Assembly (NCBI GenBank): GCA_963798465.1
Contig: CAWCTC010000001.1
Coordinates: 656,465-720,464, forward strand
Length of the DNA stretch: 64,000 bases
Reading direction: 5' to 3'
From: an uncultured bacterium
GTDB lineage: Bacteria > Patescibacteriota > Minisyncoccia > Phycocordibacterales > GWA1-40-21
The notes under the pieces were generated by a model. That model was not told where the DNA came from and did not search any database. It saw only the letters and a list, made by a program, of their open reading frames with translations. This document shows positions 5,718 through 51,920 of this stretch, piece by piece (the stretch's first letter is position 1; every line of letters starts with the position of its first letter). The position numbers were made by a program, and so were the translations under genes.

Positions 5718-5860
5718 TTACCCGAGGAAATTTTTGCCAATAAAAATTACTGTTTCGGCAAAACAGTGATATTCGTTATTTTTCTTGATTAAACCTGTTG
5801 TCATTATAAGTTGTTATGTAACAATTTTTAGAAACGTTGGCAAAAACTTTGACGGGTGAA
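5718..5860 (-). repeat. Family-1 intergenic hairpin element, copy A (abuts rnc ATG)
   Basis: The ends 'TTACCCGAGGAAATTTTTGCCAAT' and 'CGTTGGCAAAAACTTTGACGGGTGAA' form an imperfect inverted repeat. They are shared with the copies at 8886-9022 and 26458-26596. Confidence 0.75.
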
Positions 5861-5875
5861 CTTCTCGCTAAAATT

Positions 5876-6775
5876 TTATTGGTTATTTCTGCTGCTTATT
5901 ATTGTTATTGCTTTCGTGATGATTGGCAAGATGTCGTTGTAGAAATTTAAATTTTGAATATCTTGAAGCTTGAACCATTTTGCGTCATCAAGTCCTCCGC
6001 TGTCTCCGAGATGCAATTCCTTTCTGTCGGTTCGAGCAAGAAAATAAGTGACTTGTTTCCTAATCTTTCCTTCTTCAGGATGATTTGCAACATATTCATT
6101 TTTCAAAAGCTCTTCTTCAACTGTGATATCCAAACCGAGCTCGTCTTTTATTTCTCTCAGCACTCCGATTTTTGGATCTTCGCCTGGATTGATTTTACCT
6201 TTTGAAAGAGTCCATTTTCCAAAAACATCGTGAACGAAAGCAAAATAAATATTTCCGTCTTCAATACTATATATCACGGCTCCCGCAAGCTGTTTTATCG
6301 GCATCTTATCAAATGGAATATCTTTATGTTTTTTGGAAACTTCTTCTTTGCCCGGCTCTCCGAGCTCTTTGTAAATCGTTCCCAAAACTCCATTTATAAA
6401 ACCGCCGCTTTTTTCTCCGCTATAAGTTTTTGCAAGCTCAATAGCTTCGTTGATTGCAACTTTTGCCGGAACTTCTTTTCTATCAGAGAACAAAAGCTCA
6501 TAAAGCCCGATGCGCAAAATATTTCTGTCGGCAATCGAAATTTTGTCTATCGGCCAATCCGGCGCAGCTTTCACAATAATACTGTCCAAATCCGCTTTTT
6601 TGTCTATAACTCCTTTCAAAAGATTTTCTGAAAATGCTTTTTCGGAATTGCCTTCTCCAAACTCGGCATTATTTCTTTCAAGCGAGGCAAGAGCCTCTTC
6701 TCTCGAAGAATTGCGAAAATCCCACTCAAAGGCGGATTGAAATACTATTGATCTTGCAAGGTGCCTAGAAGACAT
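5876..6775 (-). CDS. nusB: NusB antitermination factor fused to a C-terminal Nudix hydrolase domain
   Basis: The N-terminal ~145 aa are NusB-like ('ADRNILRIGLYELLF..VPAKVAINEAIELAK..GFINGVL'). The C-terminal half carries a Nudix box, 'GKINPGEDPKIGVLREIKDELGL'. Confidence 0.8.
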   Translation of the reverse strand: MSSRHLARSIVFQSAFEWDFRNSSREEALASLERNNAEFGEGNSEKAFSENLLKGVIDKKADLDSIIVKAAPDWPIDKISIADRNILRIGLYELLFSDRKEVPAKVAINEAIELAKTYSGEKSGGFINGVLGTIYKELGEPGKEEVSKKHKDIPFDKMPIKQLAGAVIYSIEDGNIYFAFVHDVFGKWTLSKGKINPGEDPKIGVLREIKDELGLDITVEEELLKNEYVANHPEEGKIRKQVTYFLARTDRKELHLGDSGGLDDAKWFKLQDIQNLNFYNDILPIITKAITIISSRNNQ

Positions 6776-7737: not shown

Positions 7738-8196
7738 TTATTCCGGGCCGTAACTTTTAATTATTTCTTGGAGAGTTTTGAACTCCTCGTCTGTTTTTTT
7801 AAACTCTCCAATTCTTAACATCTCGCCTATGAGCATTTTAAACTCCTTTTTTTGCTCAAAAGAAAGATTATTACTAATCTCAATAAGAGGCCTTACAAAA
7901 ATATCTCTTATGCTGTAAGGTACCTCTACAAAAATATAAAGTGACATCTTGTCATTCCTCGTATCAACACCGAATTCAATCGGCGACTCATCTTTATGAA
8001 GAACGATAAGTCCTTTTTTTTCCAATTCATTGGATACCCTATAAAAAATAATTTCCAACAAATTAGGAAACTTTTCATTCACTTCCACTTCAACAATCGG
8101 AAATTTATAATTTCCCGGAGTAGCATCCGCTACAACGGCATAAAAGCCGTTATGAAGATACTTCATACAAAAACAAGTGCATGACACTTTTACCAT
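7738..8196 (-). CDS. Hypothetical protein (152 aa) with strong SD
   Basis: Intact ORF preceded by 'AGAGGTGATcatccATG'. Confidence 0.55.
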   Translation of the reverse strand: MVKVSCTCFCMKYLHNGFYAVVADATPGNYKFPIVEVEVNEKFPNLLEIIFYRVSNELEKKGLIVLHKDESPIEFGVDTRNDKMSLYIFVEVPYSIRDIFVRPLIEISNNLSFEQKKEFKMLIGEMLRIGEFKKTDEEFKTLQEIIKSYGPE

Positions 8197-8885: not shown

Positions 8886-9022
8886 TTACCCGAGAAAATT
8901 TTTACTGATGAAAATGTTATTGATAATATACCAACAATTTTAGTCTATCATTGTCATATTTTATTACCAAACTCTGTTAAATTACATTTTCAATAACATC
9001 AGTAAAAACTTTAACGGGTTAA
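8886..9022 (-). repeat. Family-1 intergenic hairpin element, copy B (18 nt upstream of rnhB ATG)
   Basis: The ends are 'TTACCCGAGAAAATTTTTACTGATGAAAATGTTATTG' and 'CAATAACATCAGTAAAAACTTTAACGGGTTAA'. The ACTGAT/ATCAGT pair covaries with GCTGAT/ATCAGC in copy C. Confidence 0.75.
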
Positions 9023-9026
9023 AAAC

Positions 9027-9064
9027 AAAAGGCGCAAGTTATTTTTTACTTTGCGCCTTTTTTG
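9027..9064 (-). terminator. Rho-independent terminator (GGCGCAA...TTGCGCC + U-run)
   Basis: Minus strand reads 'aaaaaGGCGCAAagtaaaaaataacTTGCGCCttttgttttt'. Confidence 0.55.
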
Positions 9065-16188: not shown

Positions 16189-16443
16189 TTAGAAATGGCT
16201 GTAGTTTGTTTTTAGATACCGCAAATAATCTTTTTTATAGATTAAAACCAGTATTATCTGCAATATCACAAAAAAAATTAACCATAAAGCCGCCGCTATC
16301 AGCAATATGATTGCCAATATAAACGGGGTCGTTTCTATGTGTAAAATTAACACACAAAAGGCAAGAAAGACGACTGAAATAATAAAACTGATAACTTTAA
16401 TCCACTCATTCAACGCCTCGAATTTCAAAAAAAGTTTGAACAT
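16189..16443 (-). CDS. Hypothetical small membrane protein (84 aa; strong SD)
   Basis: 'AAGGGAGGTGAtatatccATG' precedes the ORF, which has two or three TM helices. Confidence 0.55.
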   Translation of the reverse strand: MFKLFLKFEALNEWIKVISFIISVVFLAFCVLILHIETTPFILAIILLIAAALWLIFFVILQIILVLIYKKDYLRYLKTNYSHF

Positions 16444-18638: not shown

Positions 18639-19679
18639 ATGAATAAAGACGTTACAACAAAAGAAATAACACCGGTAGTAGTAAAGAAAACATTCTGGGA
18701 AAAAACCAAGGAATCTTTTCATGTTGCTTTGATATCGGCAGGAATCATTCTTGCAATTTTACTTTTGGTCTGGGTTCCATTCAAACTCATTCCATCAATC
18801 TACAGCCATGGTTCAAACTTCGTATCTACTTCCCTTTCATCTTTGTTTATTCCTAGTGAATCAACTTCGACTCAGCAAACTGCTCCAGAAAATGCTCTCA
18901 TAACTACAGCAACAACCAGCCAAACTACAAATGCGTCAGCTACAAAAACATCTTCTGCTCAAGTTCAGCAAGTCGCATATTATGGCGAACCAGATTTGGC
19001 GATAACTCTTATAGGAACAGGTATCATAGATCCAGCTTCAAAACAATTTATCCAGACAAATTATGCCGGTATGAACGATGAAGTTGCGATGAAATTCCAA
19101 GTAAAAAATATCGGAACAAATGTTTCCGGAGCTTGGCAGCTTAGAATAAATTCGCCCTCAAGAACGACACCTTATTATGATTCTCCTTATCAGCAATCAA
19201 TAAAACCGGGAGACAGCATGATATTCACAGCAAGTTTTGACAGTCCTATAACTACAGGCATCAACACTGCTTACGTAACTGTTGATCCTTTGAACATGAT
19301 TGCCGAATCTTCAAAAGCAAATAATCAACTCATAATTCCTATAGATATAAGCGGGACAAACTATGCTTATGCAAATGAAAATAATTATGGAAGTGTCACC
19401 ACGAATACTCCAGGAACTTTATACACTTGGACAAATATGAGCGTAAATTGCTTTGCAAATCCACAAACATCATATGTTGGAAGTCCGATAACTTGGTACG
19501 CAACAGTATCAGGAGGAAACGGATACTACACTTATTCATGGGCAGGATCAGATTTATTGAGTGCAAGCGAAAGTTACACGACAAAAACTTACTACTCAGC
19601 CGGAACAAAAGCTGCCGTAGTAACAGTCACATCAAATGGACAATCTGTGACAGCACAATGTATGGCGAATATTAATTAA
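18639..19679 (+). CDS. Membrane-anchored surface protein with CARDB-like domain and one SGGNG-Y-Y-W repeat
   Basis: The CARDB-like stretch is 'PDLAITLIG..VKNIGTNVSGAWQLRI...VTVDPLNMIAESSKANNQ'. The C-terminal repeat matches those of the 377-aa protein. Confidence 0.7.
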   Translation: MNKDVTTKEITPVVVKKTFWEKTKESFHVALISAGIILAILLLVWVPFKLIPSIYSHGSNFVSTSLSSLFIPSESTSTQQTAPENALITTATTSQTTNASATKTSSAQVQQVAYYGEPDLAITLIGTGIIDPASKQFIQTNYAGMNDEVAMKFQVKNIGTNVSGAWQLRINSPSRTTPYYDSPYQQSIKPGDSMIFTASFDSPITTGINTAYVTVDPLNMIAESSKANNQLIIPIDISGTNYAYANENNYGSVTTNTPGTLYTWTNMSVNCFANPQTSYVGSPITWYATVSGGNGYYTYSWAGSDLLSASESYTTKTYYSAGTKAAVVTVTSNGQSVTAQCMANIN

Positions 19680-19697: not shown

Positions 19698-19731
19698 AAA
19701 AGGGCGGCCGCGAAAGCGGCCGCCCTTTTTT
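19698..19731. terminator. GC-rich NotI-containing bidirectional terminator (GGGCGGCCGC-GAAA-GCGGCCGCCC)
   Basis: Lies between the convergent CARDB gene and gyrB. Confidence 0.7.
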
Positions 19732-19773
19732 GATTCTGTGGAATCACATCGCACGAGTCCTTATGGTGCGATG
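19731..19773 (-). repeat. Two-hairpin 'AAGGAC-loop' element, copy 1 (downstream of gyrB)
   Basis: Minus strand reads 'CATCGCAC-cauAAGGACuc-GUGCGAUG' followed by 'UGAUUC-CACA-GAAUCA'. Confidence 0.65.
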
Positions 19774-19780
19774 CACTTTT

Positions 19781-21869
19781 TTAAATATCAATATTCGCCA
19801 ATTTTGCATTTGACTGTATGAAAGCTTTTCTCGCAGGAACATCGGTACCCATGAGCATATCGAATGTTTTATCCGCTTCTTGTGCATCAATTACAGTAAC
19901 TCTTTTCATCATTCTTCTTGCCGGATCCAAAGTTGTTTCCCAAAGTTCGTCTGCATTCATTTCTCCAAGACCTTTATATCTTTGAACTGAAACTTTCGGA
20001 CCTTTTTTGGTTTCAATTTCTTCATCCTCAACAATTTCTTCTGATGTCGATTCAACTTCGGCAACTTCGCTATCGGCAATTTTTTCTTTTTTAAAAAAGG
20101 CTTCTTTTTCTTCCTCTGTATAAAAATAATGAACTTCTTTTCCTATTTTAACTTTATACAATGGCGGCTGCGCAATACAAATATGTCCACCATCTATGAG
20201 CGGTCTAAAATATCTGTAGAACAAAGTTAGAAGAAGCGTTGTAATGTGCGCTCCATCAACGTCAGCATCGGTGGCAATAATTATTTTATGATATCTTAAT
20301 TTTTCAATATCAAATGTATCTCCTATCGCGGTGCCGAGCGCTACGACAATATTTTTTATCATTTCTGATTCAAGCATTTTATCAAGTCTTGCTCTTTCAA
20401 TGTTCAAAATTTTTCCTCGAAGCGGAAGTATCGCTTGAATTTTTCTATCGCGTCCCATCTTTGCCGTACCGCCTGCAGAATCTCCCTCCACAATTATTAT
20501 TTCTGATTCTGATGCATCCTTGCTTTGACAATCTGCAAGCTTACCGGGAAGCGTCATTCCTTCAAGTGCACCTTTTCTGAGTATTGAATCCTTCGCGGCC
20601 TTAGCTGCTTTTCTCGCTTTAAGAGCTAAAATTACCTTAGAAACTATTGCTCTTGCATCATCTGGGTTCTCTTCAAGAAAGGCTCCGAAAGCCTCGCCAA
20701 AGACCTCTTCAACTGCGCCACGAGCCTCGACAGAACCAAGCTTTGCTTTCGTCTGACCTTCAAATTGAATTTCGCGGAGCTTCACAGAAATGACAGCAGT
20801 CAAACCTTCAAGTACATCATCTCCGGTAAAATTTTCCTCACTTTCTTTTGTCAGATTATTTTTTCTTGCATAATTATTCAGCGATCTCGTGAGAGAGGTT
20901 TTGAAACCTGTGACATGAGTTCCGCCTTCAGGAGTTTCAATATCGTTTGCAAATGCCATAATCCTCGAAGAAATATCATCAACATATTGCAATGCTATTT
21001 CTACAGATTCAACTCCTGCAGCTTTTTTCTCAACATAAAAAACATTTTTATGAATTGGTTTTTGAAATTGATTGTAAAATTTAACAAGAGATAAAAGTCC
21101 GCCTTCAAAATAAAAAGATTGCGATGGCGCTTCTATATCCAAGTTCTGAAAAATAAAATACTTCTTTATCGTCGATTTTTTCTGTAATTTCTCTTGCATC
21201 CATTGCAGTGATTCTCAAACCTTTTACAAGATAAGCTTGTTGTCTCATGTGAGAAACCACGCTGTTGAAATCAAAAACAATTCCCTCTTTGAAAATTTCA
21301 GGATCCGGCTCAAAAGTAACTATCGTTCCATGTTTGTCTGTCTTTCCGATTTTTTTTACAGAAGCTTTTGGTTTTCCTTTTGCATATTCTTGAATGTAAA
21401 TCGCGCCATCTTTATGAACGACAACTTTCATGTAAGTTGAAAGAGCGTTCACTACTGAAGCTCCGACTCCGTGAAGTCCTCCGGAAACTTTATATTCTGT
21501 TCCTTCACCTCCAAATTTTCCTCCAGCATGAAGGACGGTCATAATGGTTTCGAGTGCTGAAACTTTTGTTTGTTTGTGAATATCTACAGGAATACCTCTT
21601 CCGTTATCTGTAACTCTTACTCTGTTTCCAGGCAATAAAACAATCTCGATGTGATTGCAATAACCGTTCATCGCTTCATCGCGAGAATTGTCAAAAATCT
21701 CTGTTATAAGGTGATGCAAACCATCTGGACCTGTTGTTCCAATATACATACCTGGACGCCTTCTGACGGGCTCCAGCCCCTCAAGGACCTGGATGGCACT
21801 GGCATCATAATGATGTTCACTCTTTGCTTCTTTTTTGGGTTTTTCTTGCCCGTTCAAATTTTTTGCCAT
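19781..21869 (-). pseudogene. gyrB: DNA gyrase subunit B with a single +1 insertion in a T-run (~21,150)
   Basis: The N-terminal GHKL ATPase ('LEGLEPVRRRPGMYIG', 'DNGRGIPV') and the Toprim/C-terminal part ('EIIIVEGDSAGG', 'IIATDADVDGAHI') lie in two frames. The junction 'TTT TAT TTTT CAG' restores '..KEVFYFQNLDIEAPSQSFYFEGG'. Confidence 0.88.
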
Positions 21870-22560: not shown

Positions 22561-22589
22561 AAGAGCTAGGTCAAACCTAGCTCTTTTTT
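22561..22589. terminator. Bidirectional terminator (AAGAGCTAGG-TCAAA-CCTAGCTCTT + T-run)
   Basis: 10-bp perfect stem between the convergent small-ORF pair and the 190-aa gene. Confidence 0.7.
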
Positions 22590-23160
22590 ATTTCTCCGTA
22601 AAAATTACCAATCTTTTCCAGCCGAGTTTAAATTTATCTATTTCTACAAAAAGATTCTCGCCTCCATTTTCTTCCGGCATTTCCGGATCATGATAATAAA
22701 ATCCGTTTATTTTTCCTTTATCATCTTTTTCATAGCCGACAATCACAATTCCGTGATGCCTGTCTTTCTCAGTAAAATATTTGTAGATTGAAACAATCGA
22801 TGGCATTCCTTCGTCTATTTTTTCTGCAATTTTTCCTATTCCCTTTTCCAAAAATAAATCTGACATCGGGCCGGCTTTCATTTCTCCATTTTTTATATCC
22901 ACATCAACAGATTTAAATTCTTGAGCATACGCGGAAATCCCGTGGTTTCTAAAAAGCCTTATGACTTCGTTGTGTTTCCAGAATTTGCCATCCCAGGCGC
23001 CGACAGAAGTTCCCTCTTTTATCCAATCGTCAGCTGGAATATTTTTTTCTCCCAAAAATTCAGCCACCATTTTTATACAAACAACAAGACAAGAGTGAGC
23101 TTTCCATTCAGGATCTATCACATCTGTGCGCTGAGAATAATATGGTACTTTTAATTTCAT
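22588..23160 (-). CDS. Papain-like cysteine peptidase, C39-like (Peptidase_C39_2-type)
   Basis: 'VPYYSQR', the candidate Cys in 'AHSCLVV' and the candidate His in 'RHHGIVIVGY' follow the order seen in C39-like domains. Confidence 0.5.
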   Translation of the reverse strand: MKLKVPYYSQRTDVIDPEWKAHSCLVVCIKMVAEFLGEKNIPADDWIKEGTSVGAWDGKFWKHNEVIRLFRNHGISAYAQEFKSVDVDIKNGEMKAGPMSDLFLEKGIGKIAEKIDEGMPSIVSIYKYFTEKDRHHGIVIVGYEKDDKGKINGFYYHDPEMPEENGGENLFVEIDKFKLGWKRLVIFTEK

Positions 23161-23268
23161 CCCGTAAAGAAATTTTAATATTTTGATAATTTCGACTTCT
23201 TGATAAATTGATTCTATACTTTTTTAGAAAAATTTTAATACTGAGCTGAATTTCACACGGGACAAGTA
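23161..23268 (-). repeat. Family-2 intergenic element, copy 1 (fills pheT stop to next ATG)
   Basis: The left block 'CCGTAAAGAAATTTTAATATTTTGATAATTTCGAC' and right block 'ACGGGACAAGTA' are shared with 61805-61914. The minus-strand ends CCCGU...ACGGG can pair, and ACGGG directly abuts the ATG. Confidence 0.65.
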
Positions 23269-23271
23269 TAA

Positions 23272-25632
23272 TTATCTTACTTGCCAATCTTTTTTTGCAT
23301 TCATCTTATCGGTAATTTTCTGCATAATTGCATTTACTTCATCATCAGAAAGAGTTTTTTCATATGACTGAAAAATTATTCTGTATGCGTAAGAAGTTTT
23401 TTTAGTTCCGTCTTCCAAAGTTTTTGTGAAGACATCGAACAATCTGTTTTTCAACATAAGTTCTCCAGCATTTTTATTTATTATTTCCAAAACTTCATCG
23501 GCTTTCGTTCCTTCCGGAGTAAATACAGCAATATCGCGAATCATGAACGGAAATGGTGAAATCTTTTTAAATTTTAAGTCTCTACCATCTTCTTTTGGAA
23601 AATCATATTCTAAAACATCGGGTAAATTCTTAATCATATCTGAAATTAAAAATTCAGCGATATTTTCATCATTATTTATCTTCTCTAGTTTTAAGTTTAG
23701 TGTTTCAGAAAGCTTCTTCAAAGTTGCATCAAGCACATCTTTTTCTTTTGGTTTTTTAACTCCTGCTGGATTTTGTACTCCAATGACAAAATTTTCAGTT
23801 TCTCCATTAAAACTAAATACATGGCCAAATTCAAATATTTTTATTTGAGGCATATCAATAAGTTCAGAATATCTAGCATTTAGATCTAAAGAATCCTTGA
23901 TACCAGAAGAAAGATTAGTTCTCAAATATTTTTTCTCTGGAGATAAAGGTTTTAATAATTCAATATCACCCTTCTTTACAAAAGAGTAATTCATTACTTC
24001 AGAAAAACCTTCTTCATACAAAAAATTTCTTATTTTTTGCTTATAAGCAAAAACTTTATTTGTTTTTGGTTTTTTTATTGAATCAGGAATATCAATATAT
24101 TTTATTTTATCGTAACCATATATCCTTCCTATCTCTTCCGCGAGATCTTCCTTGATTCTCAAATCCAATCTTTCATCAGGAACAGTAATGACAAATCTTT
24201 CTTCATTGTCAGACATTCTTCTGTATCCGACGATATTTTTGAATCTTTCTGATATTTTTAAATCTTCTATAACTACTTTTCCTGTAAGAGATGTTGCATG
24301 AGTAACTTTTCCATCTCCTAAATATAATCCGCAATGATCTACCCCCTCTAGAACTTTAGTGCCAGGTAAAAATTCAATTGTTTCTGTGTATATCTTTCCA
24401 TCTTTTGTATTTGAAAATATAACATCTCCAGCCTTCAAATCTTTTTCTTCTATTTTTTCTCCAAACACATATTGATCAACTGACATTCTTGGAATCTGAA
24501 TTCCCGCTTGAGCAAAAAGGTTGCTGACAAAACCTGAGCAATCAAAAGCTTTCGGCGCATCGTAAGTTATGCTTGCTCCACGTTTATATGGAACTCCAAC
24601 AAAAGTTGGTGCGAGTTTCAAAACCTCATCAATCGGTCTGACTTTCTTCCATTCAAAATTAAATCTGTCAAAAATCTTTTCAATATCAGAATCTTTTATT
24701 GGAACGCCGATTATTGAGCTTGCTTCGGCTGAAGAAATGCCGAGCTTGAATTTATTTGCTCTTTTTGGATAATTATCTACAACATCTCCAACTTTTGTAT
24801 CTTTTGTTCCGGCAATTTCAACAATTAATTTTGTGAGAATATCCATCGCTTCCCCGCAAAGCTCAGGCGTCAAATCATTTTCATATCTTTTTGAAGCATC
24901 TGTTTGAATTTTAATTTTTTGTGCGGTTTTTCTTATGTTTACCGGGCTAAAATTCGCCGACTCCAAAATAATATTTTTTGTATTGAGATCGAGCTCAGCA
25001 AAATCTCCGCCTTTTATGCCGGCAATTGCAAGCGGATTTTTTCCGTCCGTAATAAGCAGGACGCTTTCATCAAGCTCGACTTCTTTTTTATCAAGAGTTG
25101 TTATTTTTTGGCCTTTCCCGGCATTTTTAACGACAATTTCATTGCCGATTTTATCAGAATCAAAAGCGTGCATCGGCTGGCCGATTTCAAGCATGACAAA
25201 ATTTGTCGCATCAACAATATTATTTATCGATCTCTGTCCGAGTATTTCCAGCTTTTCCGCTAGCCATTTTGGCGAAGGACCAACTTTGATATTTTCAACG
25301 ACTCTTCCGATATATCTTCTGCACAGTTTTTCATCATCAATTTTTACTTCAAGATTTTTTGAAGTTTTTGAAATATTAAAATCTTTAAATTTTCTAGAAT
25401 ATTTTTCTATTTTAATATCAGCAATAGTTCCGAGTTCTCTTGCAATTCCTCTGTGACATAAGCAACTATGATTTAAGTTTGGCGTAGCTTTTGTATCTAT
25501 GACAACATCACCATTCATTTTTTCAGTTCCTTCAACTTCCATCGAATGCATTTCCAAAAGCTCCACCGTTTTTTCAACTTTCGGTGCTTTGCCATTAAAA
25601 TATTCATTTAACCATTTATAAGAAACTTTCAT
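23272..25632 (-). CDS. pheT: Phenylalanine--tRNA ligase beta subunit carrying an internal NlpC/P60 insertion
   Basis: B1, B3_4 ('NNIVDATNFVMLEIGQPMHAFD'), B5 ('FVITVPDERLDLRIKEDLAEEIGRIYGYDKI'), core and C-terminal FDX-ACB-like segments are all present and intact. No OB-fold B2 domain was seen. Confidence 0.9.
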   Translation of the reverse strand: MKVSYKWLNEYFNGKAPKVEKTVELLEMHSMEVEGTEKMNGDVVIDTKATPNLNHSCLCHRGIARELGTIADIKIEKYSRKFKDFNISKTSKNLEVKIDDEKLCRRYIGRVVENIKVGPSPKWLAEKLEILGQRSINNIVDATNFVMLEIGQPMHAFDSDKIGNEIVVKNAGKGQKITTLDKKEVELDESVLLITDGKNPLAIAGIKGGDFAELDLNTKNIILESANFSPVNIRKTAQKIKIQTDASKRYENDLTPELCGEAMDILTKLIVEIAGTKDTKVGDVVDNYPKRANKFKLGISSAEASSIIGVPIKDSDIEKIFDRFNFEWKKVRPIDEVLKLAPTFVGVPYKRGASITYDAPKAFDCSGFVSNLFAQAGIQIPRMSVDQYVFGEKIEEKDLKAGDVIFSNTKDGKIYTETIEFLPGTKVLEGVDHCGLYLGDGKVTHATSLTGKVVIEDLKISERFKNIVGYRRMSDNEERFVITVPDERLDLRIKEDLAEEIGRIYGYDKIKYIDIPDSIKKPKTNKVFAYKQKIRNFLYEEGFSEVMNYSFVKKGDIELLKPLSPEKKYLRTNLSSGIKDSLDLNARYSELIDMPQIKIFEFGHVFSFNGETENFVIGVQNPAGVKKPKEKDVLDATLKKLSETLNLKLEKINNDENIAEFLISDMIKNLPDVLEYDFPKEDGRDLKFKKISPFPFMIRDIAVFTPEGTKADEVLEIINKNAGELMLKNRLFDVFTKTLEDGTKKTSYAYRIIFQSYEKTLSDDEVNAIMQKITDKMNAKKDWQVR
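24199..24642 (-). other. NlpC/P60 (C40 peptidase-like) module embedded in PheT (aa ~331-478)
   Basis: 'VGVPYKRGAS....FDCSGFVSNLF...DHCGLYLGDGKVTHAT' shows the canonical NlpC/P60 order with Cys, His and His present. Confidence 0.75.
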
Positions 25633-26457: not shown

Positions 26458-26596
26458 TTACCCGAGAAAATTTTTGCTGATAAAAATGTTATTGCTAATA
26501 TTTTGATAAATTATATTTTATTACTATTTCTGCCCTGATAGATACAGTATCTTTTTTGCATTTTCAATAACATCAGCAAAAACTTTAACGGGTTAA
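26458..26596 (-). repeat. Family-1 intergenic hairpin element, copy C (4 nt from pheS ATG)
   Basis: The ends are 'TTACCCGAGAAAATTTTTGCTGATAAAAATGTTATTG' and 'CAATAACATCAGCAAAAACTTTAACGGGTTAA'. Confidence 0.75.
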
Positions 26597-26617
26597 TTAT
26601 ACAGAAAATACGAAGTT

Positions 26618-29672: not shown

Positions 29673-29745
29673 GCCACCTTAGCTCAGTTGGTAGAGCGCC
29701 ACTTTTGTAAAGTGGATGTCCCCAGTTCAAATCTGGGAGGTGGCT
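29673..29745 (+). tRNA. tRNA-Thr (anticodon UGU), discriminator U, CCA not encoded
   Basis: Manual cloverleaf: acceptor GCCACCT/AGGTGGC, D arm GCTC-AGTTGGTA-GAGC, anticodon arm CCACT-TTTGTAA-AGTGG, T arm CCCAG-TTCAAAT-CTGGG. Confidence 0.9.
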
Positions 29746-29789: not shown

Positions 29790-30167
29790 TTACAAACTTT
29801 TTTTCCTGAGAGAATTTTTATAATCCGAAACATTCTTTATAAAAAAAGATACTGAATTCTTTTTCAAATGGCTGGGTTTCTGAGGACTAAGAAAAAATGC
29901 CGGCTGTTTGCTGTCGAATTTTCTCTTTAAATATATTATTTCCTTTTTTATGAAGTCTGCGGTTCTGACGGTCAATCTATGGAAGTTTTCAAATTTTATT
30001 TTTGAAAAAATATTTTTACTATGATGATATATCTTTCTGCAATGCGCGTCGTTCTCGCAAACTATGTTTGAAATAGCTTCGTGATGATCCAGAGAAAATC
30101 CAAAATACTTTATCGCAAACATTGCGACTATGAGAAATAAGGATGTATAAAATAAGATAAAAGCCAT
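29790..30167 (-). CDS. Hypothetical protein with N-terminal TM helix (125 aa)
   Basis: Intact ORF downstream of tsf. Confidence 0.45.
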   Translation of the reverse strand: MAFILFYTSLFLIVAMFAIKYFGFSLDHHEAISNIVCENDAHCRKIYHHSKNIFSKIKFENFHRLTVRTADFIKKEIIYLKRKFDSKQPAFFLSPQKPSHLKKNSVSFFIKNVSDYKNSLRKKSL

Positions 30168-30192: not shown

Positions 30193-30801
30193 TTAACAAA
30201 CTTTCGGGCCTGTGATTTCGCTTGTGCTGAGACGGACAAATCTTGCCACTTCTATCTTCTCGCCAAATTTTTGTATCGCGTTTTGAATCAAAGTATTTAC
30301 TGTTATCGATGGATCTTTTATAAAATCCTGTTCCAATAATATTCTTTCTTTGAAAAAGGCATCGAGCTTTCCGGCTAAAATCTTTTCTCTCATCGCTTCC
30401 GGCTTATCTTTGACTTCATCCTCAAATGCATCGAGAACTTTTGTTCTAGATTCAAGAGACACATCGTCTTTTTTTATGTAAGCAGGATTCGTAGCTGCAA
30501 TCTGCATGGCTATATCATAAGCAAGTTGTTTAAAATCTTCATTTTTTGAAACAAAATCTGATTCGCTTGAAAGTTCAACAAGAACTCCGACTGAACCTAT
30601 TCCGTGAATATAGGAAACTATTCTGCTTGATTTCAAAACTCTGTCAGCTTTTTTAGCTGCTGTCTCTGCTCCTTTCTTCTGCAAATAGATCATTGCTTTA
30701 TCCATATCTCCCTTTGCTTCCTCAAGAGCTTTTTTGCACTGCATTATAGAGATTCCTGTTTTCTCGCGGAGATTCTTAACTTGTTCCATTGATATTTCCA
30801 T
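30193..30801 (-). CDS. tsf: Elongation factor Ts (short form)
   Basis: UBA-like N-terminus 'VKNLREKTGISIMQCKKALEEAKGDMDKAMIYLQKKG'. The true start may be the second Met (30789). Confidence 0.88.
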   Translation of the reverse strand: MEISMEQVKNLREKTGISIMQCKKALEEAKGDMDKAMIYLQKKGAETAAKKADRVLKSSRIVSYIHGIGSVGVLVELSSESDFVSKNEDFKQLAYDIAMQIAATNPAYIKKDDVSLESRTKVLDAFEDEVKDKPEAMREKILAGKLDAFFKERILLEQDFIKDPSITVNTLIQNAIQKFGEKIEVARFVRLSTSEITGPKVC

Positions 30802-30804
30802 AAT

Positions 30805-30850
30805 TGATTTTGCGAAATCACGTCGCGCGACCGTCCTTTAAGCGCGATGC
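30805..30850 (-). repeat. Two-hairpin 'AAGGAC-loop' element, copy 2 (abuts tsf start)
   Basis: Minus strand reads 'UCGCGC-uuaAAGGACgguc-GCGCGA' then 'UGAUUU-CGCA-AAAUCA' then AUUAUG. Confidence 0.65.
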
Positions 30851-30928
30851 TATTCATATTTAATTAATTTGATAATGACCAAACAAAAATTTTTTTTTAC
30901 AAAAAAAAGTAAAAATTGAAACCGAATC

Positions 30929-49596: not shown

Positions 49597-51729
49597 CTAT
49601 TTGAGCGTCCCGTTATTGATTCCTGTTATTACAGTTTCTCCTTGAGATTCAAATCCTGGATTAATTTTCATTGCATCTTTGACTTGCGCAATTGCGGAAG
49701 CCTTGTCGCCTTTCTGCAAATAATTTTCTGCTCTTATCAAATATGCTCTGACTATGTCTTGACTGGTTGTCGTAGCGGTGCCGATAATCTGGTTAGCCAA
49801 AGAATCCTGATTATCAACAATCAGAGCTGCGGCATAACTCATCTTTGCATCATCATCAATCGGCATCAAATCATATTCTTTCTTTGCGATTGCAACTGCT
49901 TGATCTCCTTGTCCAAGATATGAATAACATTTTGCCAACTCAGCCATCATTGTCAATTTATCCGGTGAAAGTTCAACGGCTTTCTGCAAATAAGGCAAAG
50001 CCAGCTGATATTGGCTCATATTGTCCAAAAATGTTCCCATGAAAAACTGATATCTTGCATCATTCGGGGTTTGCAACAATTGGGTTTGCATTTGAGTGTA
50101 TGCGAGCTCGACAAAATTCTGCTTCGTCGTATTATCTACGGAACTTGCCGCAGCTATTGATGGCGCAATGCTGATTATCTGCTCTCTCGCTTCCGGACTT
50201 CCAAAAGTATTTTCAGCAAATACTTTATTGAAATAATTCAAAGATGCTTGCGGAGATTGATTGACCGATTCCATTGCATTTATGAGATTGAGATTTGCGT
50301 CTATCGGTTTTATATTGCAATACCAGAGAGATGCTCCCAAAGCTAAAATCAAAATCGGCGCGACGACATAATTTGCGATATCATTGCTTACTCCGGTTTT
50401 TTCAACAGAAGATTCATCAGTTTTTGCATCCCTAAAATAGATATATGCTAATATCGCGTAGAAAAACATGTAACTCGTAAGATTGTCGAAAACAAAAAGA
50501 TTTTGCGCAAAATATGCAGCAAGCAAACCGACTATCAATCCTGCTTCTATTACTCCAAAATTATTTCTCTTCTTTATAAAGACAAACAGTGCTGTAATAA
50601 AAATTGAAAGATAAGCCAAGAGACCGATTGCTCCGCCTGCGACAAGAACATCGAGAGGTGTATCATGCGCACGATCAAACCATTGCTCTTGATTCCACAT
50701 TCTTGGATCATAATATTTATTGAAGACATAATTGAATCCTTCCTGTCCCCAGCCGAGCACCGGCTTTTCCAAGAAACCTTTAGCCGCCATTTCCCAAACA
50801 TATTGTCTTGCTTGTCCGGAATCAGAAACATTATCCCATGAAATTTCTGCAAATCTTTCCAAAGTCGGATTATTTTTTACGAATTGAGTATTTTTTATTG
50901 CAATAAAACCACCAATAAGCAAAACTACTATCGCGATTAAACCTATTGAAGAATTCTTGACCAGTTTATTTTTCTTTTCAAAAATTGCAACTATGATTGA
51001 TGTCACGACTAAACCTCCGAGCAAGCCGAGTACAACTCCTCTTGTTCCAGTCCTCCAAATGCCGAATGCGCATATCGCAGCTGCCACAGCATAAGCATAA
51101 GTAAGCCAATTGCTGAAAATATCTCTTATCGGTTTCAAAGAGTCTGCTTTTTTTTCAATTACATCTTTGTACAAAAGTATCAAAGCGAAGAAGAAATTGA
51201 ACAAGAAATAAACTGCGACATAAATGGCATTTCCAAAAGTCACAGAAACTCTCGTCGTATGAGTCGTGAGCCATTCATTTATCACAAAAATAATCATAAT
51301 GACGCTGGCAAAAACAGAAGTTCTGAAAAACCACATCCAGATTTTTTCCGATTTCATGATTGAACCGAAAACGAGCAGATACATCAAAAGATGCACGAGA
51401 GTTATTCCTCCGTCCATTCTTTCAAAATTGCTCCAGAAAGCTTTCGCTGGATTTACAGCAAAAATATCGGCGATTATCATTACAAAAACAAAAGCTGCAA
51501 CTGAAATTGCCACCCACGAAAATTTTGGCCTGTATTTAGGATCGACAAAGGCAAGATAAACCCACAAAGCAAAAATTATTTCTATTATTATTCTGAAAGC
51601 GAAATTTTTTCCTGTGATGAACGGAAAGAACATATTATTCGCCACATAAAAAGGTATCAGCAAAACTGACCAGAGGCCGACAATTATCGTCCACTTTATT
51701 ATATTATTTACTGTATTATTTTTACTCAT
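49597..51729 (-). CDS. O-antigen ligase/polymerase-like (Wzy_C) polytopic membrane protein with C-terminal TPR repeats
   Basis: At least 10 TM helices, with a loop 'GTRGV...' and 'GWGQEGFNYVF...RAHDTPLDVLVAGG'. The C-terminal ~230 aa are TPR-like ('YQLALPYLQKAVELSPD'). Confidence 0.65.
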   Translation of the reverse strand: MSKNNTVNNIIKWTIIVGLWSVLLIPFYVANNMFFPFITGKNFAFRIIIEIIFALWVYLAFVDPKYRPKFSWVAISVAAFVFVMIIADIFAVNPAKAFWSNFERMDGGITLVHLLMYLLVFGSIMKSEKIWMWFFRTSVFASVIMIIFVINEWLTTHTTRVSVTFGNAIYVAVYFLFNFFFALILLYKDVIEKKADSLKPIRDIFSNWLTYAYAVAAAICAFGIWRTGTRGVVLGLLGGLVVTSIIVAIFEKKNKLVKNSSIGLIAIVVLLIGGFIAIKNTQFVKNNPTLERFAEISWDNVSDSGQARQYVWEMAAKGFLEKPVLGWGQEGFNYVFNKYYDPRMWNQEQWFDRAHDTPLDVLVAGGAIGLLAYLSIFITALFVFIKKRNNFGVIEAGLIVGLLAAYFAQNLFVFDNLTSYMFFYAILAYIYFRDAKTDESSVEKTGVSNDIANYVVAPILILALGASLWYCNIKPIDANLNLINAMESVNQSPQASLNYFNKVFAENTFGSPEAREQIISIAPSIAAASSVDNTTKQNFVELAYTQMQTQLLQTPNDARYQFFMGTFLDNMSQYQLALPYLQKAVELSPDKLTMMAELAKCYSYLGQGDQAVAIAKKEYDLMPIDDDAKMSYAAALIVDNQDSLANQIIGTATTTSQDIVRAYLIRAENYLQKGDKASAIAQVKDAMKINPGFESQGETVITGINNGTLK

Positions 51730-51776
51730 TGATTTTGAGAAATCACGTCTACGCAGTCGTCCTTCCCGCGCGACGG
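51730..51776 (-). repeat. Two-hairpin 'AAGGAC-loop' element, copy 3 (abuts start of 710-aa gene)
   Basis: Minus strand reads 'CGUCGCGC-gggAAGGACgacu-GCGUaGACG' then 'UGAUUU-CUCA-AAAUCA' then AUG. Confidence 0.65.
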
Positions 51777-51920
51777 AACTTTTTAAATTAATTTATAAAT
51801 GCCTTCGACTTATTATTTTTAATGTCTGGGATTATATCATAAAAAAATACAAGCAACTATAAGCATGCGTTTTGTTTTTTAGCCCAAAAATGCTAACATT
51901 CACCTGTAAAAAATAAAATT

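Follow-up and report, generated by a model that had tools for sequence, protein, structure and literature searches.

An undescribed family of two-hairpin modules in contact with start codons in Patescibacteria

Compact RNA structures that stand between or directly ahead of protein-coding genes are known from several systems. In the tRNA punctuation of mitochondria, compact structured RNAs lie flush between open reading frames (ORFs), 0-3 nt from the start codon, and the mRNAs are leaderless and carry no Shine-Dalgarno (SD) sequence. A structured unit likewise flush with the start codon, in an SD-poor and leaderless setting, is described here from a 64-kb stretch of DNA of an uncultured Patescibacteriota bacterium (assembly GCA_963798465.1, contig CAWCTC010000001.1, positions 656,465 to 720,464), which is called the window throughout and in which an element of about 47 nt, composed of two abutting hairpins, occurs in three copies. 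These modules represent an undescribed, conserved RNA family that matches no family of Rfam 15. Unlike the mitochondrial unit, the element is not a tRNA, with no match to ARAGORN-type or Rfam tRNA models; its cleavage is only a proposal, and many copies follow promoter-like DNA instead of another gene. As for the hosts, an anti-SD motif has been detected in only 48% of Parcubacteria, in which bS21 is often absent, and the losses of ribosomal proteins in the candidate phyla radiation (CPR) have been likened to those of mitochondrial ribosomes (PMC9297842).

Other described systems share particular features with the element. The repetitive extragenic palindromes (REP) and bacterial interspersed mosaic elements (BIME) associated with REP-associated tyrosine transposases (RAYT), as well as the Correia elements of Neisseria, are short, repeated, imperfect extragenic palindromes that are co-transcribed with genes, differ from strain to strain, and can influence how mRNA is processed or how stable it is, whereas the present element is strictly sense-oriented, makes exact contact with ATG, forms no inverted clusters, and exists in old, locus-stable copies. 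The hairpins bound by CsrA/RsmA and the sponge RNAs CsrB, CsrC, and RsmZ also display a purine-rich loop motif near the start, and one of the window copies is terminator-linked; CsrA targets, however, hold at least two GGA sites, one of them overlapping the SD, and sponges hold many, while the element has a single motif in which GGA is not conserved. The intercistronic RNase III sites of phage T7 (R1.1 type) are hairpin modules between cistrons whose cleavage leaves a protective 3' hairpin on the upstream message and frees the downstream start, but they are single long irregular hairpins followed by an SD, in contrast to two short abutting hairpins with no SD. Small tandem-hairpin riboswitches (guanidine-II or mini-ykkC) are similarly tiny, with two hairpins and conserved loop nucleotides directly upstream of the start, yet the element matches no Rfam riboswitch, its downstream genes share no metabolic theme, and its hairpins are contiguous and unlike each other. 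The 5' stabiliser hairpins of the ompA and aprE leaders also present a stable GC-rich stem at or near a conserved purine, a possible transcription start; these leaders have an SD downstream and do not form repeated families, whereas many copies of the element are operon-internal.

The window copies and the family to which they belong

Read from 5' to 3', the element opens with a purine (mostly G) and continues with hairpin 1, whose GC-rich stem of 8 bp closes a loop of 11-13 nt; hairpin 2, an A/U-rich hairpin of 6 bp with the form UGAUUY-CGCA-RAAUCA, follows with no linker, and the AUG of the next gene usually comes at once. All three window copies run in the direction of their neighbouring genes (gyrB, tsf, and a Wzy_C/TPR gene), on the minus strand. 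A joint pattern of loop motif and hairpin 2 retrieves exactly these three sites, with 0 expected from 100 shuffles, and a covariance model applied to the whole window with filters off returns the same three at 73.7, 62.5, and 52.1 bits, the next match scoring 14 bits, which confirms the number and the positions of the copies given in an earlier sequence-only reading of the window.

The highest-scoring copy (copy 2, 30805-30853, 73.7 bits) lies in the spacer between rpsB and tsf and comprises a 4-nt 5' flank, ATAG, together with the two hairpins. Hairpin 1 (30821-30849) pairs CAUCGCGC (30842-30849) with GCGCGACG (30821-30828), with one A.C mismatch, around the loop UUAAAGGACGGUC (30829-30841), and hairpin 2 (30805-30820) reads UGAUUU-CGCA-AAAUCA; 3 nt (AUU) further on, the ATG of tsf (30799-30801) opens an ORF (30193-30801) that matches TIGR00116 and encodes EF-Ts. 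Copy 1 (19731-19777, 62.5 bits) is located in the 3' untranslated region (UTR) of gyrB, its first stem base standing 7 nt past the TAA stop codon (19781-19783). It combines the stem CAUCGCAC (19766-19773) / GUGCGAUG (19747-19754), the loop CAUAAGGACUC, and the hairpin 2 UGAUUC-CACA-GAAUCA (19731-19746), and folds with a minimum free energy of -16.7 kcal/mol (z = -4.2). It is followed by AAAAA and then directly by a bidirectional rho-independent terminator (19698-19729, AAAAGGGCGGCCGC-UUUC-GCGGCCGCCCUUUU), which is common to gyrB on the minus strand and to the convergent gene 18639-19679 on the plus strand. Copy 3 (51730-51779, 52.1 bits), which is identical to the orthologous copy of a relative (L030), has the stem CGUCGCGC (51768-51775) / GCGU-A-GACG (51746-51754), with one bulge and one G.U pair, the loop GGGAAGGACGACU, and the hairpin 2 UGAUUU-CUCA-AAAUCA (51730-51745), and ends 0 nt before the ATG (51727-51729) of an ORF (49597-51729) for a 710-aa protein with Wzy_C (O-antigen ligase) and TPR domains, to which an exact-protein look-up gave no match. 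The sequence-only reading had described a GC-rich hairpin 1 stem that differs between copies, a hairpin 2 of the form UGAUUU-CNCA-AAAUCA in two copies and UGAUUC-CACA-GAAUCA in the third, and the placement of two copies 0-3 nt before the tsf and O-antigen-ligase-like starts and of one after gyrB beside a terminator, all of which agree with the sequence.

Beyond the window, a pattern scan of one genome per species yielded 29 loci in about 15 metagenome-assembled genomes, and all of the labelled genomes among these are Patescibacteria (Ca. Nomurabacteria, Paceibacterota, and some labelled Saccharibacteria), while a scan of metagenomes with hairpin 2 alone as bait gave at least 120 stretches. Viral contigs that were scanned contained no copies, and a phage origin was set aside because nothing matched there. 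At gathering threshold, Rfam 15 reports only a tRNA (29673-29745) in the window and nothing on the element; in E-value mode, no family matches the element itself in copies 1 and 2, and the sub-threshold matches near copy 1 all map to the terminator at 19698-19729, so identity with a known RNA family was rejected. No description of the element was found in the literature on CPR bacteria. An intrinsic terminator was likewise dismissed as an identity, since hairpin 1 is succeeded by hairpin 2 and then by AUG or an A-run, with no U-tract directly after, and a coding role was dismissed as well, since the frame that an upstream ATG opens through copy 2 is not that of tsf.

Covariation, expanded variants, and the conserved loop

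The structure is supported by covariation across 107 distinct copies, in which 96.4% of cells are standard-paired, compared with 17-49% in slid-partner controls, and double-sided changes occur in 10 of the 14 pairs; none of 500 shuffles reaches the observed values. The claim of a structured two-hairpin element with compensatory changes, originally drawn from the window copies, is thereby borne out. The switch from U:A to C:G in hairpin 2 is recurrent (74 U:A against 24 C:G, with few mismatches), as are switches from G:C to A:U at stem positions 2 and 7 and from C:G to U:A at the loop-closing pair. At the rpsL locus, two lineages share the stem CGUCGCGC/GCGCGACG, whereas a third has CAUCGCGU/ACGCGAUG; this amounts to two compensatory double changes.

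Expanded variants all retain the outer stem, hairpin 2, and the contact with AUG. In nested variants, an inner two-hairpin unit is situated within the loop of hairpin 1, and folding agrees with this prediction; such forms are present in L042, L058, L060, L063, L077, L088, L090, L092, L095, L107, and L127, and their inner hairpin 2 belongs to at least three lineage-specific types (CGAUUC/GAAUCG, CGGUUU/AAACCG, and UAAUUC/GAAUUA). They occur at secE, nusA, tgt, and other genes, and the same genes carry the simple form in other lineages. Other variants contain a 46-55-nt insert between duplicated copies of GUGCGAC. This long form (L026:3787-3888(-), L031:3835-3945(+), L070, L073, L089, L080) begins with a full hairpin 1, continues with the insert, which has a hairpin of its own and a conserved GAAGUACUCYUGUG, and ends with a second stem 3' strand, GUGCGACG, the duplication of which makes two alternative pairings possible.

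Loop statistics were taken from 74 copies retrieved without any constraint on hairpin 1. GAC is present in 68 of these loops (92%), GGA in 40 (54%), AGGA in 27 (36%), and AAGGAC in 23%, and loops with AAUCGAC, AAUUGAC, or AAAUGAC are common. The family consensus is Y-Y-W-A-A-W-N-G-A-C, with the conserved core A-A-W-N-G-A-C, which occurs once per element about 30 nt from the AUG. The AAGGAC loop that had been described as constant is therefore invariant among the 11-13-nt loops of the three window copies, but not across the family, and its conservation in further copies, a test that the sequence-only reading had set beforehand, falls to the 23% given above, which counts against the CsrA and SD readings discussed below. 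Pairing of a loop GACG with the 5' CGUC was considered and rejected, since GAC is kept when the stem becomes CAUC/GAUG, and no covarying partner was found for loop-loop or loop-to-16S pairing. Short loops tend to go with the C:G type of hairpin 2, which looks like subfamily structure. The copies of the element may share a trans-acting partner.

Placement at gene junctions and history of the copies

Among 126 distinct copies, 52 end exactly at an ORF-opening ATG, 22 end 1-3 nt before it, and 11 end 5-14 nt before it, so that 85 of the 126 are start-codon copies and 61% of the start-proximal copies touch the AUG exactly. About 11 copies lie between a same-sense stop codon and a terminator, and the remainder comprises inner units of nested forms, a few GC-rich chance matches, and a few unresolved cases. 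The orientation is sense in every copy with an assignable neighbouring gene; no copy antisense to its adjacent gene was found among them, and no inverted pairs were seen. At 16 intercistronic junctions, including atpD-atpC, secD-secF, two transketolase halves, and folD, the element follows the stop codon after 0-19 nt and precedes the ATG by 0-5 nt. Housekeeping genes of many kinds lie downstream, among them those for S2, S12, L10, L7/L12, EF-Ts, HPF, RpoB, NusA, SecE, SecF, DnaK, RecA, SerRS, CysRS, KsgA, and KhpA, and many of them bear the element in several lineages. Transcription may begin exactly at the first purine of the element; the DNA ahead of it has an A+T content above 90% and a weak periodicity resembling that of -10 boxes, although the position of the -10 is not sharply peaked.

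Some copies are directly followed by a strong terminator (L141:3006-3052(+), L034, L086, and L062:130-176(+)); in L141, a TATAAT stands 8 nt upstream of the copy, and in L034 and L086 there is an additional terminator upstream. These terminator-linked copies could be stand-alone small RNAs of about 85 nt. Downstream of a few other copies (L001:20513-20609, L008/L116), a GC-rich repeat-like sequence containing GCTCGACCCCGACTCGCGCCGTCGCGCTCCGTCTCGC is present, which is unusual for genomes of 35% GC and has no Rfam match.

The translational context of the host is one of scarce SD sequences, only 5 of 70 gene starts in the window having an SD-like motif. A strong -10 box (TATAAT) ends 3-12 nt before 17 of the 70 starts (mode 6), compared with 7.4% of random positions, and the many TATAAT boxes 6-9 nt before ATG imply that leaderless mRNAs are widespread. 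The few SDs of the window read GGAGGTGAT, for example upstream of 7738-8196 and 16189-16443, and operon-internal genes between 53 and 61 kb are joined by stop-start overlaps or gaps of at most 9 nt.

Comparison of 16 orthologous pairs, whose proteins are 58-87% identical and whose third codon positions are about 50% identical, demonstrates that the elements themselves are 89% identical, or 82% in the portion outside the search pattern, whereas identity is 70% between paralogous copies of the same genome and 72% between random pairs. The greater similarity of orthologues indicates that copies track loci and not genomes, and that they are old, vertically inherited, and constrained. Presence/absence polymorphism between close relatives is seen at tsf, where the site is filled in the window and empty in the close relatives L001-L006 with identical EF-Ts. 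The relatives read TAAATA-ATTTTTTT-ATTATG and the window reads TAAATA, then TGAATAG with the element, then ATTATG, so that 52 nt in the window correspond to 8 nt in the relatives, a replacement instead of a clean insertion. The gyrB copy has a diverged counterpart in relatives, 33 nt further from the stop codon. Empty orthologous sites of the leaderless type have TATAAT 7-9 nt before the start (L079:3508, L084:638, L089:2831), and those of the coupled type are seen at folD, where stop and start overlap as ATGA in L040 and stand 4 nt apart in L154, the filled counterpart in L035 reading TAA, g, element, t, ATG; further locus look-ups gave no additional filled/empty pair. Since the empty sites are leaderless or stop-start coupled, the element behaves as a precise insertion into such junctions.

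Hallmarks of transposition were sought in the same material. The first 10 nt match the reverse complement of the last 10 nt at 0-4 positions in all 108 copies, so that no terminal inverted repeats (TIRs) are apparent; k-mers of the two flanks, compared for k = 2-6 at five candidate boundaries, agree no more often than by chance, so that no target-site duplication (TSD) is apparent; and tblastn with the IS200 and IS608 TnpA detected no Y1 transposase below E = 0.16 in a fragmentary 0.97 Mb sample made up of the window and all element loci. A classical miniature inverted-repeat transposable element (MITE) or an IS200-derived element is not supported, and in these three respects the family, within this sample, also departs from REP and Correia elements. 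The 5' flank has the consensus A-T-A-G, the G at its last position being present in 65% of copies and not invariant, as compared with the GTAG of REP.

Several features adjoin these loci. A second repeat, a long imperfect hairpin of ~135-150 nt with TIR-like ends (ACCCGTYAAAGTTTTTRC...GYAAAAATTTYCTCGGGT) and no Rfam match, occurs in the window at ~26461-26610, ~8889-9040, ~5721-5870, and ~23161-23290, all on the minus strand, and ends 0-27 nt before the starts of pheS-like, RNase HII, and RNase III genes and of ORF 22588-23160; the variant at 23161 (ACTTGTCCCGTGTGAAATT...AAAATTTCTTTACGGG, then ATG) stands directly after the two-hairpin element in L053, L091, and L098. The RNase III gene is adjoined by a gene for a NusB-NUDIX fusion of 299 aa (5876-6775 (-), L156:11045-11944). 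In the rpsB-tsf spacer, a pure A/U hairpin (ACUUUUUUUU-GU-AAAAAAAAAU, 30875-30915 (-)) precedes copy 2, and relatives differ there. Directly downstream of tsf, a conserved 125-aa ORF (29790-30167 (-)) with no NCBIfam or Pfam match keeps the same position in all relatives. The gyrB gene (19781-21869 (-)) is broken into the ORFs 19781-21199 and 21105-21869, which overlap and differ in frame, whereas close relatives have an intact 695-aa gyrB; the split in the window is a frameshift or an assembly error.

Possible roles of the module

The family, its structure and conservation, its placement, and the leaderless or coupled form of the empty orthologous sites are best explained by an RNA module that occupies leaderless or coupled junctions and is neutralised, so that its AUG is used in a leaderless-like manner; this reading, whose mechanism we infer, is given a probability of about 0.42. 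In an SD-poor host, 47 structured nucleotides in front of a leaderless or re-initiation AUG would have to be neutralised at the RNA level, and under this reading the module is probably cleaved off or folded away, after which the adjacent AUG could work in a leaderless-like way. In the preferred version, a form of punctuation, an endonuclease would recognise hairpin 2 and the GAC loop and cut at the 3' foot of hairpin 2, giving an mRNA that starts at the AUG or 1-3 nt before it (a 0-3-nt leader). In a version without cleavage, the abutting hairpins would bring the 5' and 3' ends of the module together and thus present the AUG beside the 5' end of the transcript or beside a terminating ribosome. 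In both versions, recognition would depend on the GAC of the loop and on the invariant hairpin 2.

Taken further, the module might be a bacterial counterpart of mitochondrial tRNA punctuation, which a host nuclease, or the module's own activity, would cut at the 3' foot to give leaderless mRNAs, a doubtful extension. In SD-poor CPR bacteria, the ribosome would thereby receive operon-internal and leadered genes as leaderless mRNAs, and the module, possibly of selfish origin, would persist in the manner of a UTR intron, kept intact because the essential downstream gene needs its removal. The best explanation leaves room for an origin as a selfish element that came under constraint later; subsequent selection for transparency, as in introns, would account for mobile-like features and strong conservation together.

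Several considerations weigh against neutralisation at the start codon. The transcription of the element, its transcription start sites, its cleavage or fold-out, and the identity of any partner enter the argument by inference, and a simple sigma-70 scan found no promoter abutting window copies 2 and 3. On the sense strand, mismatches comprise 21 G.U against 39 A.C/C.A, with none of the wobble preference typical of RNA, a pattern that is as compatible with weak selection on each copy, or with a constraint on the DNA, as with an RNA structure. A function at start codons would have nothing to act on in the roughly 10% of copies situated between a stop codon and a terminator. The 11 copies placed 5-14 nt from ATG have no SD, and at three loci another structured leader of ~130 nt intervenes between element and ATG, both of which imply that the host can initiate without flush contact. 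Genes with their own promoter gain no obvious benefit from a leader that is added only to be removed. Finally, no candidate nuclease is linked to the element; in favour of the reading, genes for RNase III and for a homologue of RNase II/R do lie beside the window's own genes, but the RNase III gene is not tied to the element.

The loop statistics bear directly on the proposal of the sequence-only reading that a GGA-displaying loop is bound by a regulator of the CsrA/RsmA type, with the terminator-linked copy acting as a sponge, or that it mimics or sequesters an SD. The window and its close lineage do present A-AGGA-C in the loop, AAGGA together with GUGAU resembles a split form of the local SD (GGAGGUGAU), and CsrC is the nearest small RNA match in Rfam by E-value. 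Nevertheless, it is GAC that is conserved and not GGA or AAGGAC, UCGAC, UUGAC, and AUGAC loops being common, which rules both readings out for the family; the single motif stands ~30 nt ahead of the AUG, where an SD would lie 5-9 nt from it, the end of GUGAU is 12 nt away compared with 5-6 nt for the SDs of the genome itself, and the 0-3 nt between element and AUG in 74 copies contain no SD, so that there is nothing to sequester. The CsrC match, at 27.7 bits against a gathering score of 61, spans the terminator, and no Rfam Csr family is matched at threshold. Searches of the 0.97 Mb with the CsrA of E. coli and B. subtilis (tblastn) gave nothing below E = 4.9, and no Hfq homologue was found in these element-bearing contigs, each being a weak test. 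For the family as a whole, the proposal is largely refuted and retains very little probability. A role at the level of DNA, in which the 6-4-6 palindrome TGATTT-CGCA-AAATCA would be the operator of a dimeric regulator, or in which a cruciform or a hairpin of the non-template strand would form at promoters, is just as improbable. Hairpin 2 is indeed a near-perfect inverted repeat of highly conserved sequence, G.U is not preferred over A.C, and many copies lie just downstream of AT-rich promoter-like DNA; yet the half-sites change jointly (U:A to C:G in 24 copies, and CGAUUC/GAAUCG and CGGUUU/AAACCG in inner units), which argues against an operator because base pairing requires such changes and a protein operator does not. 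In addition, the pairing of hairpin 1 is kept despite variation in its sequence, many intercistronic and 3' UTR copies have no promoter nearby, and the orientation is strictly sense.

Of greater plausibility, though still less probable than neutralisation, is a leader that stays uncleaved on the mRNAs of a regulon and regulates or stabilises them; a sequence-specific protein, or the ribosome, would bind the GAC loop and hairpin 2 of many housekeeping messages, tuning translation or shielding the mRNA from RNase J and 3' exonucleases, with the copies at 3' ends serving as extra sites or decoys. Such a leader would account for the conservation of sequence itself, beyond structure alone, in the loop core and in hairpin 2, for purifying selection at orthologous loci, and for a gene set rich in translation, transcription, and secretion; the 3'-end copies and possible promoter-element-terminator units such as that in L141 agree with a factor that would bind the module at any site, and the GC-rich stem right after a conserved purine is like that of 5' stabiliser hairpins. 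It is nonetheless a tentative alternative, as a generic binding site leaves both the exact contact with AUG and the placement in otherwise leaderless or coupled junctions unexplained, no partner has been identified, orthologous genes work without the module, and a G.U preference is absent. An unlikely explanation, but one that the history of the copies invites, is a selfish palindromic repeat of the REP or MITE kind with no host function, spread by a machinery recognising single-stranded DNA or hairpins and surviving only at those few positions where a compact genome allows it, its stems covarying since only intact hairpins propagate. It would fit the presence or absence of the element between strains with identical EF-Ts, the nested and tandem partial copies, the occurrence of several copies per genome in 5' UTRs, 3' UTRs, and intercistronic gaps, the strand symmetry of the mismatches, a 5' flank that loosely recalls GTAG, and the fact that a second, unrelated repeat also precedes start codons in the window. 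The lack of TIRs, of TSDs above chance, and of a Y1 transposase in the 0.97 Mb speaks against it, as do the sense orientation wherever a neighbour can be assigned and the exact contact with ATG; the identity of 82% between orthologous and 70% between paralogous copies indicates neither a recent burst nor concerted evolution, and conservation exceeds that of synonymous sites by far over a long divergence.

The Patescibacteria constitute a very large and mostly uncultured part of bacterial diversity, characterized by tiny genomes, reduced ribosomes, and a poorly known mode of translation start. The element is an undescribed, lineage-wide RNA module with an unusually precise relation to start codons, and in an SD-poor lineage it touches the AUG of core genes, including those for S2, S12, L10, EF-Ts, RpoB, NusA, SecE, and DnaK. 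Should the module prove to be selfish, it would nonetheless represent a novel type of repeat that either targets start-codon junctions for insertion or persists nowhere else. In either case, it can serve as a useful marker for the annotation of start codons in these genomes. If the module is processed, or if its AUG is presented in a leaderless-like manner, the expression of operon-internal genes in SD-poor, leaderless-rich bacteria would become testable, and the mechanism could be checked in existing metatranscriptomes.

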